Positions 4,515 through 5,798 of a DNA stretch of 64,000 nucleotides are shown here, one piece after another. Origin of the DNA: Escherichia coli (GTDB lineage Bacteria; Pseudomonadota; Gammaproteobacteria; Enterobacterales; Enterobacteriaceae); NCBI RefSeq assembly GCF_003334815.1, contig NZ_QOWO01000008.1; one strand, given 5' to 3'. The notes under the pieces were generated by a model. That model made no database searches. It was not told the DNA's origin and saw nothing but the letters and a program-made list of their open reading frames with translations. Position 1 is the first letter of the stretch. Each line of letters opens with the position of its first letter. A program made the position numbers and the translations under genes.

Positions 4515-5798
4515 ATGGCTCTTAACACACCACAAATTACGCCGACAAAAAAGATAACAGTGAGGGCAATCGGCGAGGAACTGCCGCGTGGTGATTACCA
4601 ACGTTGCCCGCAATGTGACATGCTGTTTAGCCTGCCCGAGATAAATTCTCATCAAAGTGCCTATTGTCCGCGCTGTCAGGCAAAAATTCGTGACGGGCGC
4701 GACTGGTCGCTAACGCGCCTGGCGGCAATGGCCTTCACCATGCTGTTGCTTATGCCGTTTGCCTGGGGCGAACCGCTGTTGCATATCTGGCTGTTAGGCA
4801 TTCGTATTGACGCCAACGTTATGCAAGGCATCTGGCAAATGACCAAACAGGGCGATGCGATAACGGGGTCGATGGTCTTTTTCTGCGTTATTGGTGCCCC
4901 GCTCATTCTGGTGACCTCCATAGCTTATTTATGGTTTGGTAACCGACTGGGAATGAATTTACGTCCGGTACTGCTGATGCTTGAGCGACTTAAAGAGTGG
5001 GTAATGCTCGATATCTACCTGGTCGGCATTGGCGTTGCTTCTATAAAGGTACAGGATTATGCCCATATCCAGGCTGGTGTCGGCTTGTTCTCTTTTGTGG
5101 CGTTGGTGATTTTAACGACGGTGACGTTGTCACATCTTAATGTCGAAGAACTGTGGGAGCGATTTTATCCGCAGCGCCCCGCTACGCGTAGGGACGAGAA
5201 ACTTCGTGTCTGTCTTGGGTGCCATTTTACCGGCTATCCAGATCAGCGTGGTCGCTGCCCGCGTTGCCATATCCCGCTACGCCTGCGTCGCCGTCATAGT
5301 CTGCAAAAATGCTGGGCGGCGCTGTTAGCGTCAATCGTTTTATTGTTACCTGCCAACCTGTTGCCTATTTCTATCATTTATCTGAACGGAGGACGGCAGG
5401 AAGATACAATTCTTTCCGGAATTATGTCGCTGGCAAGTAGCAACATTGCGGTTGCAGGAATCGTGTTTATCGCCAGTATTCTGGTACCGTTTACTAAAGT
5501 GATCGTCATGTTCACTTTACTGTTGAGCATTCATTTTAAATGCCAGCAAGGTTTACGCACACGTATTCTGTTACTGCGGATGGTGACCTGGATTGGTCGC
5601 TGGTCGATGCTCGACCTGTTTGTCATATCTTTAACCATGTCGCTGATTAATCGCGATCAGATCCTCGCTTTTACTATGGGACCGGCTGCGTTTTATTTCG
5701 GCGCAGCGGTAATTTTGACTATTCTTGCTGTGGAATGGCTGGACAGCCGCTTACTTTGGGATGCACATGAGTCAGGAAACGCCCGCTTCGACGACTGA
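4515..5798 (+). CDS. yebS: PqiA-family integral inner-membrane protein (LetA/YebS), 427 aa
   Basis: Full-length ORF with paired CxxC motifs (CPQCD...CPRCQ; CLGCH...CPRCH) and multiple hydrophobic segments; overlaps start of yebT. Confidence 0.9.

Follow-up and report, generated by a model that had tools for sequence, protein, structure and literature searches.

The reading frames of letA (yebS) and letB (yebT) overlap in a stretch of Escherichia coli DNA of 64,000 nucleotides (nt) (NCBI RefSeq assembly GCF_003334815.1, contig NZ_QOWO01000008.1; the whole stretch is called the window below), which raises the question of where translation of letB begins and why it should begin within the preceding gene. 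A mechanical list of open reading frames (ORFs) gives 4515..5798 (427 amino acids, aa) and 5725..8400 (891 aa, TTG start). The initial annotation had placed the start of yebT 32 nt inside the 3' end of yebS, and this position was borne out: the ATG lies at 5767-5769 and the letA TGA at 5796-5798, so that 5767..5798 is shared by both genes. It is highly likely that the overlap is real, that LetB initiation takes place at AUG 5767 and that the ORF from 5725 is over-extended.

The start of letB within letA

The junction was compared in 80 Enterobacteriaceae species, in which the N-terminal 400 residues of LetB were 80-99% identical to those of the window; counts out of 81 refer to these species plus the window. 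The features that bear on the start of letB are the following.

4515..5798, plus strand: letA (yebS), 427 aa, PqiA-family inner-membrane protein, stop TGA 5796-5798 (ORF list, collinearity with K-12 b1833)
5767..8400, plus strand: letB (yebT), 877 aa, seven-MCE-domain tunnel protein, start ATG 5767 (the RefSeq start in K-12 and other E. coli)
5767..5798, plus strand: out-of-frame overlap, letB in the +1 frame of letA, encoding LetA 418-427 and LetB 1-11
5758..5761, plus strand: Shine-Dalgarno-like GGGA within the LetA Trp415-Asp416 codons TGG GAT (5757-5762), 5 nt upstream of ATG 5767
5761..5763, plus strand: in-frame ATG at -6, which would give MHMSQE..., present in 55/81 sequences and judged incidental
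5725..5727, plus strand: TTG of the 891-aa mechanical ORF, derived from the LetA Leu-Ala codons CTT GCT and judged not to be a start
5716..5718, plus strand: letB-frame TGA upstream of the mechanical ORF, a stop (TGA or TAA) being found there in 81/81 sequences

An ATG equivalent to 5767 was present in 80/80 species. In 77 of them letA ended with TGA and the overlap measured 32 nt; in the other 3 the stop was TAA and the overlap 44 nt. The ATG, the 32-nt overlap and the TGGGAT-N5-ATG context were all kept in Yersinia pseudotuberculosis, Erwinia amylovora and Serratia fonticola. Conservation of the 32-nt overlap spans three families of the Enterobacterales. An ORF of 877 codons follows, and ATG and overlap alike are conserved in all 80 species; the overlap is therefore genuine and not due to chance. 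Moreover, from the letA stop as far as the LetB transmembrane helix the letB frame holds no ATG, GTG or TTG. After 5767 such a codon first recurs at Met32, within that helix, and a later choice of start therefore cannot abolish the overlap.

Nearly all columns of 5767-5798 were invariant, with constraint from both frames; the variable positions +14 and +23 are synonymous in letB but change LetA. The normal third-position variation of letB was back by about codons 16-21. In the published cryo-electron microscopy (cryo-EM) study, LetA 419-427 had no density, and LetB 1-13, absent or of low confidence, were omitted from the model (PMC13017536), indicating that the overlap codes for the disordered tails of both proteins.

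Three in-frame start candidates are available to letB, one of which, ATG 5761, was not mentioned in the initial annotation. Their predicted properties are given below, with opening energies computed for -18..+12 relative to each start; the background for the two genes was 14.35 +/- 3.6 kcal/mol.

ATG 5767: GGGA 5758-5761, -4.0 kcal/mol, 5-nt spacer; opening energy 10.3 kcal/mol
ATG 5761: no correctly spaced Shine-Dalgarno element, GGGA abutting; opening energy 15.2 kcal/mol
TTG 5725: no Shine-Dalgarno element in range; opening energy 15.8 kcal/mol

The Shine-Dalgarno element expected upstream of 5767 inside yebS was thus found as GGGA at -9..-6, present but weak, and its duplex with the 3' end of 16S rRNA (-4.0 kcal/mol) was the best of the three candidates.

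Within the Enterobacteriaceae the letB frame is open from 5719, the TTG at -42 is kept in 79/81 sequences with a stop just before it in all, and conservation of synonymous letA sites is unusually high from -47 to -2. Such a pattern would fit a LetB that starts at TTG 5725 (891 aa), the conserved upstream sequence being dual coding; a start at ATG 5761 (879 aa) would fit its presence in 55/81 sequences and its annotation as the start in some Kosakonia records. Either start is nevertheless very improbable. Dual coding from 5725 is compatible with the Enterobacteriaceae data alone and was rejected on the stops in the outgroups. Stops in the letB frame lie at -15 in Yersinia and Serratia, making a start at -42 impossible there, and Yersinia has a further stop at -27. 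The upstream letB frame is also closed in five of seven more distant LetAB loci with a junction (L084, L089, L090, L091, L092), yet the downstream ATG and the same N-terminal sequence are kept in these outgroups. The TTG itself is lost in two Citrobacter (L012, L024), with a change of Ala to Ser, and the variable sites would cause radical changes in the hypothetical extension (L/Q/P, W/L/S, T/I, A/D, M/T). As to ATG -6, 26/81 sequences have ACG or ATA in its place, among them that of the E. coli representative L004; this codon arises incidentally from GAT GCA, which encodes LetA Asp-Ala. The N-termini of homologues with 34-54% identity align within about 3 residues of E. coli LetB residue 1. 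The suspicion that the longer yebT ORF is an over-extension was thus upheld by the outgroup stops, by the loss of the TTG in two Citrobacter and by the lack of a Shine-Dalgarno element in range.

Several observations weigh against a start at 5767. The Shine-Dalgarno element there is weak, and ATG 5761, which would add 2 aa, is excluded by comparative and Shine-Dalgarno arguments only, LetB 1-13 being not resolved in cryo-EM. Within the Enterobacteriaceae the letB frame is open from -48 with the TTG nearly always kept, and the proportion of invariant letA third positions, which are letB second positions, was similar upstream (9/14) and inside the overlap (about 7/10). Furthermore, neither yebT nor yebS appears in the supplements of a tetracycline translation-initiation-site profiling paper, a retapamulin preprint and a riboproteogenomics paper.

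Some Kosakonia contigs carry both an 879-aa (MHMSQE...) and an 877-aa (MSQE...) LetB record (P0263/P0264, P0256/P0257), indicating that annotation pipelines disagree between ATG -6 and the conserved ATG. The mechanical ORFs of the neighbouring genes msrC (3888-4439, minus strand, 183 aa) and rsmF (8474-9919, plus strand) were also longer than in the K-12 annotation (msrC 3888..4385, rsmF from 8480), an over-extension to the first available start of the same type as in the 5725 ORF.

The overlap and the 877-aa start are already annotated in RefSeq and published, and constitute an ordinary feature of the locus. In K-12 MG1655, letA (1916258..1917541, b1833) and letB (1917510..1920143, b1834) share the same 32 nt, and a 32-bp overlap of the two genes is stated in PMC13017536. 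The Prokaryotic Genome Annotation Pipeline (PGAP) names yebS and yebT in E. coli genomes (96-99.9% identity), and in the 2 genomes inspected the yebT start is equivalent to 5767, with the 32-nt overlap. The segment 5400-6100 matched 5425/5426 complete E. coli genomes at at least 95% identity.

A constrained block at the 3' end of letA

The sole new element of the analysis is a block of letA in which synonymous variation is suppressed.

5718..5765 (48 nt), plus strand: block of suppressed synonymous variation, letA codons 402-417, directly upstream of the letB start

Suppression was measured at residues conserved in the 80 species, as the number of degenerate third positions that were near-invariant.

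letA codons 1-390: near-invariant 2/271, mean entropy 1.23 bits
letA codons 402-417: near-invariant 9/14, mean entropy 0.34 bits
letB codons >40: near-invariant 1/283, mean entropy 1.22 bits

The difference between codons 402-417 and codons 1-390 of letA was highly significant (Fisher p = 3.5e-12), and the lowest 16-codon window elsewhere in letA had a mean entropy of 0.83 bits. Much of the block was also conserved in Erwinia and in Yersinia, where TTTTGACTATTCTTGCTGT is identical. Since the letB frame is closed in Yersinia, this conservation is not explained by dual coding.

The block holds pyrimidine-rich tracts and a small hairpin, detected by a hairpin scan and in the centroid fold.

5736..5749, plus strand: small hairpin TGGCTGGACAGCCG, 4-5 base pairs with a tetraloop, core GGCUGGACAGCC at 5737-5748

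Its stem is invariant and its loop variable (C/T at 5744), and Yersinia, Erwinia, Serratia, Dickeya and L084 all have it.

The 30S ribosomal subunit covers roughly -35 to +19 of a start site. The block probably serves as an extended region for ribosome binding or standby, which has to be kept accessible within coding sequence, and a ribosome-binding region embedded there would explain the suppressed synonymous variation. A more specific proposal is possible but doubtful, namely that the block is a dedicated cis-acting RNA element, either a standby or S1-binding enhancer with the small hairpin, or a target of a small RNA (sRNA) or of ProQ. If this were true, the dedicated element would load ribosomes on letB independently of letA and set a roughly 6:1 synthesis of LetB and LetA, and the embedded RNA element, rather than the overlap, would be the functional feature. 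Three negative results count against these interpretations of the block. No covariation was found at the junction, the TGGCTGGACAGCCG hairpin included; folding of the junction region was not exceptional (z = -0.16); and an Rfam search gave no match even at E <= 10.

The synonymous constraint reaches to about -49, beyond a typical Shine-Dalgarno region, and TTGACT at 5715-5720 is a near-consensus -35 hexamer. Together with the conserved hairpin inside the block, and with the 1:6 stoichiometry of LetA and LetB, which would profit from extra letB expression, this could point to a separate regulatory element, such as an internal promoter raising letB transcription, a site bound by ProQ, Hfq or an sRNA, or a site of RNase action that sets the LetB:LetA ratio. 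Such an element is quite unlikely. A scan of 5500-5900 on both strands gave no sigma-70 promoter-like pair, and TTGACT is not followed by an acceptable -10 hexamer at 16-18 nt; the internal promoter was rejected for lack of this partner. Besides the absence of covariation and of an Rfam match, no minus-strand ORF of at least 20 aa reaches into the block; the only one nearby, at 5772..5852, has 26 aa and was rejected as a candidate antisense gene. A literature search on transcription start sites returned no relevant paper, and no dataset of such sites was examined. By genomic SELEX (systematic evolution of ligands by exponential enrichment), a sigma-28 RNA polymerase peak has been assigned to yebR/yebS/yebT at K-12 position 1914836 in an older numbering (PMC5493296).

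The block also contains CUU-U (5754-5757), at which a prfB-like slip from CUU to UUU would produce a LetA-LetB fusion by programmed +1 frameshifting. A slip at Leu414 would enter the letB frame exactly (UUU GGG AUG CAC AUG) and within its open stretch, the four-fold-degenerate third base of CTT is invariant in all of the 80 sequences out of 81 that keep Leu, and the fusion would be topologically possible, both termini being cytoplasmic as inferred from PMC13017536. Frameshifting is extremely improbable all the same, and was rejected for want of a stimulator: the next codon is UGG instead of a stop or rare codon, and no Shine-Dalgarno element lies 3 nt upstream. L084 (ATC), Yersinia and Serratia (both ATT) lack the motif, four-base motifs of this kind are common by chance, and the published LetA and LetB are separate chains in a ratio of 1:6.

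Other structures at the junction were considered and not retained. The minimum free energy helix of UUUUGACU (5713-5720) with AGUCAGGA (5770-5777), which would enclose the start, is disrupted by an uncompensated G>A at -50 in 8 species. Nor is it preserved in Yersinia, Erwinia and Serratia, which have CAA CAG as codons 2-3. The alifold hairpin CUAUUC/GAAUGG is broken in Serratia. Terminator-like hairpins with T-rich tails were observed on the plus strand at 5602-5616, 5685-5707 and 5736-5749, within the last 200 nt of letA, 3 being found versus 0.5 +/- 0.9 in shuffled sequences. These hairpins have 5-8 base pairs and lie inside coding sequence, and they were not accepted as terminators.

The Shine-Dalgarno element and the floating letA stop

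The GGGA element was invariant in 81/81 sequences, and the spacing TGGGAT-N5-ATG was also found in Yersinia, Erwinia, Serratia, L084, L087 and L088. The Trp-Asp codons that contain it close a C-terminal motif of LetA, D-S/T-R-L-x-W-D, which is conserved in LetA of the Enterobacterales, of Vibrio-like lineages and of lineages with split LetA, as well as in PqiA. Between this motif and the letB ATG the spacing is constant in the Enterobacterales, L084, L087 and L088, and the variable part is the position of the first letA-frame stop, as seen from the overlap lengths.

L084: 56 nt
three Enterobacteriaceae: 44 nt
most Enterobacteriaceae: 32 nt
L090: 23 nt
L087: 14 nt
L088, L092: 11 nt
L091: 8 nt
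L089: 4 nt
Dickeya lacustris: no overlap, 12-nt gap, own Shine-Dalgarno element

These results suggest that the overlap is a tolerated by-product, with the letB ribosome-binding site embedded in the last conserved codons of letA. The dispensable, disordered tail of LetA would read on to the first stop of its frame inside letB, giving rise to the overlap, which may be tolerated as only the disordered tails of both proteins are encoded there.

In Dickeya lacustris (L097 1588-1601) the letA stop lies 12 nt before the letB ATG, and the last letA codons are predicted to hold a separate Shine-Dalgarno-like element that is stronger (-5.9 kcal/mol) and stops about 15 nt short of the ATG. LetA is split into two single-PqiA-domain genes in L090 (817-2023), L091 (787-2008) and L092 (769-2011), an arrangement known for Pseudomonas aeruginosa (PMC13017536). 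The two halves overlap each other by 20, 8 and 17 nt, and the second half overlaps letB by 23, 8 and 11 nt, respectively. An 889-aa LetB-like multi-MCE gene, 43% identical and without an adjacent PqiA/LetA gene, was also observed in L085 (2001-4670) and L086 (1399-4068), flanked by a lipid A acyltransferase-family gene and luxS.

The locus of the window has the organization of a LetAB (YebST) operon, with a PqiA-family gene directly upstream of, and co-directional with, a multi-MCE gene (6-8 MCE domains). The operon status of letA-letB is given in PMC13017536 and PMC5561183. In the homologous loci PF04403 (PqiA) lies upstream and is followed by PF02470 (MCE); the proteins of the window were assigned by collinearity with K-12 and by PGAP names. 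The neighbourhood is that conserved in the Enterobacterales, with proQ-msrC upstream and rsmF downstream in E. coli. A GAF/msrC gene upstream and rsmF downstream were also found in L087, L088, L089 and L095, and rsmF in L096 and L097.

The whole window is collinear with MG1655 1911744-1975743 and has 13 point differences, none of them in 5700-5810. These differences (12 transitions and 1 transversion) are at 5564, 7352, 13952, 15391, 18538, 28999, 30092, 43451, 46304, 50987, 51578, 54872 and 62132. The change at 5564 is synonymous (letA codon 350), and that at 7352 gives LetB A529V. Among 12 rows spread-sampled from the 5425 E. coli genomes, the best match was 99.9% identical over 5400-6100. 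Since this top-ranked row differs slightly from the window, the change at 5564 may be private to this strain.

Translation of letB and comparison with known gene pairs

The two genes are co-directional, with a stop and a start that overlap by 32 nt, as in coupled pairs. The initial annotation had taken this arrangement to fit translational coupling, which, judged from sequence, is plausible. Two models of coupling, RNA unfolding and ribosome scanning, are distinguished in a review (PMC12548453), which also reports that more than 80% of overlaps are shorter than 30 bp, and cites the coat-lysis pairs of phages fr (-38 nt) and MS2 (-50 nt) as precedents. The arrangement at -32 nt is within this precedent.

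In its obligatory form, coupling would mean that only ribosomes coming directly from letA translation produce LetB, the overlap having been selected to tie LetB to LetA. After termination at UGA 5796-5798 such ribosomes would move back 32 nt by scanning to reach AUG 5767, or they would be required to unfold the site. The weak Shine-Dalgarno element, the conservation of the 32-nt overlap over three families, the occurrence of some overlap in most of the LetAB lineages sampled and the phage precedents are in line with this. Obligatory coupling is unlikely, however, for several reasons. The complex consists of 1 LetA and 6 LetB, according to the published purification and structure, and strict 1:1 reinitiation by the same ribosomes therefore cannot supply LetB in that ratio. 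In opening energy the start region ranks within the most accessible 14% of positions, and the search for a conserved inhibitory structure there was negative. Functional selections have used a plasmid with refactored, non-overlapping letAB as the wild-type background (PMC13017536). In Dickeya a gap of 12 nt separates the genes and letB has a Shine-Dalgarno element of its own, overlap length elsewhere ranges from 4 to 56 nt, and the paralogous pqiA-pqiB pair has no overlap.

The letB start combines a weak Shine-Dalgarno element (-4.0 kcal/mol) with an opening energy at the 14th percentile (10.3 vs 14.35 +/- 3.6 kcal/mol) and an ordinary fold (z = -0.16). We tentatively propose, with somewhat less than even confidence, that translation relies mainly on independent 30S loading, with facilitation from letA ribosomes. 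LetB synthesis would then probably proceed mainly by direct 30S binding to the extended and fairly open ribosome-binding region in letA codons 402-417. Ribosomes translating letA may facilitate this by keeping the site unfolded or by scanning back 32 nt after termination. Coupling is thus possible as a contributing effect.

The junction was compared with several known systems. The letA/letB pair of K-12 MG1655 represents the same locus, with an identical junction. The pqiA-pqiB pair has the same gene order and protein families, and PqiA ends in D-x-R-L-x-W-D with the same TGGGAT. The comparison with this junction suggested in the initial annotation showed no overlap there: the pqiA stop lies 4 nt before the pqiB ATG, with a strong GAGGAG upstream. 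The tail of PqiA after W-D has 12 aa and is finished before the pqiB start, and pqiB-pqiC use a 4-nt ATGA overlap.

Gene pairs of the ATGA/TGATG class are likewise co-directional operon genes for subunits of one complex, with the stop at or after the next start. They differ in an overlap of 1 or 4 nt as compared with 32 nt at letA/letB, where a terminating letA ribosome would need to move backwards. The other annotated same-strand overlaps that were listed in the window measure 1-8 nt (znuC/B 4, yecD/E 4, cmoA/B 4, flhB/A 8, flhA/E 1 and motA/B 4).

The coat-lysis pairs of MS2 and fr share with letA/letB a long out-of-frame overlap and a start well upstream of the stop of the first gene, and both the unfolding and the back-scanning model have been applied to them. 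In these phages the downstream gene is silent when uncoupled and has a start buried in structure, whereas the letB start is predicted to be fairly open. A further difference is that LetB is needed in six-fold excess.

The finding of the overlap is of little weight in itself, as it is in RefSeq and in print, and has been engineered around by researchers working on LetAB. The longer mechanical letB ORF from 5725 should not be used. The length of the overlap would be an evolutionary by-product of the floating letA stop, the distance from Trp-Asp to the ATG being the constant part. In recoding, refactoring or mutational scanning of the 3' end of letA, synonymous changes in this region may alter the expression of LetB.

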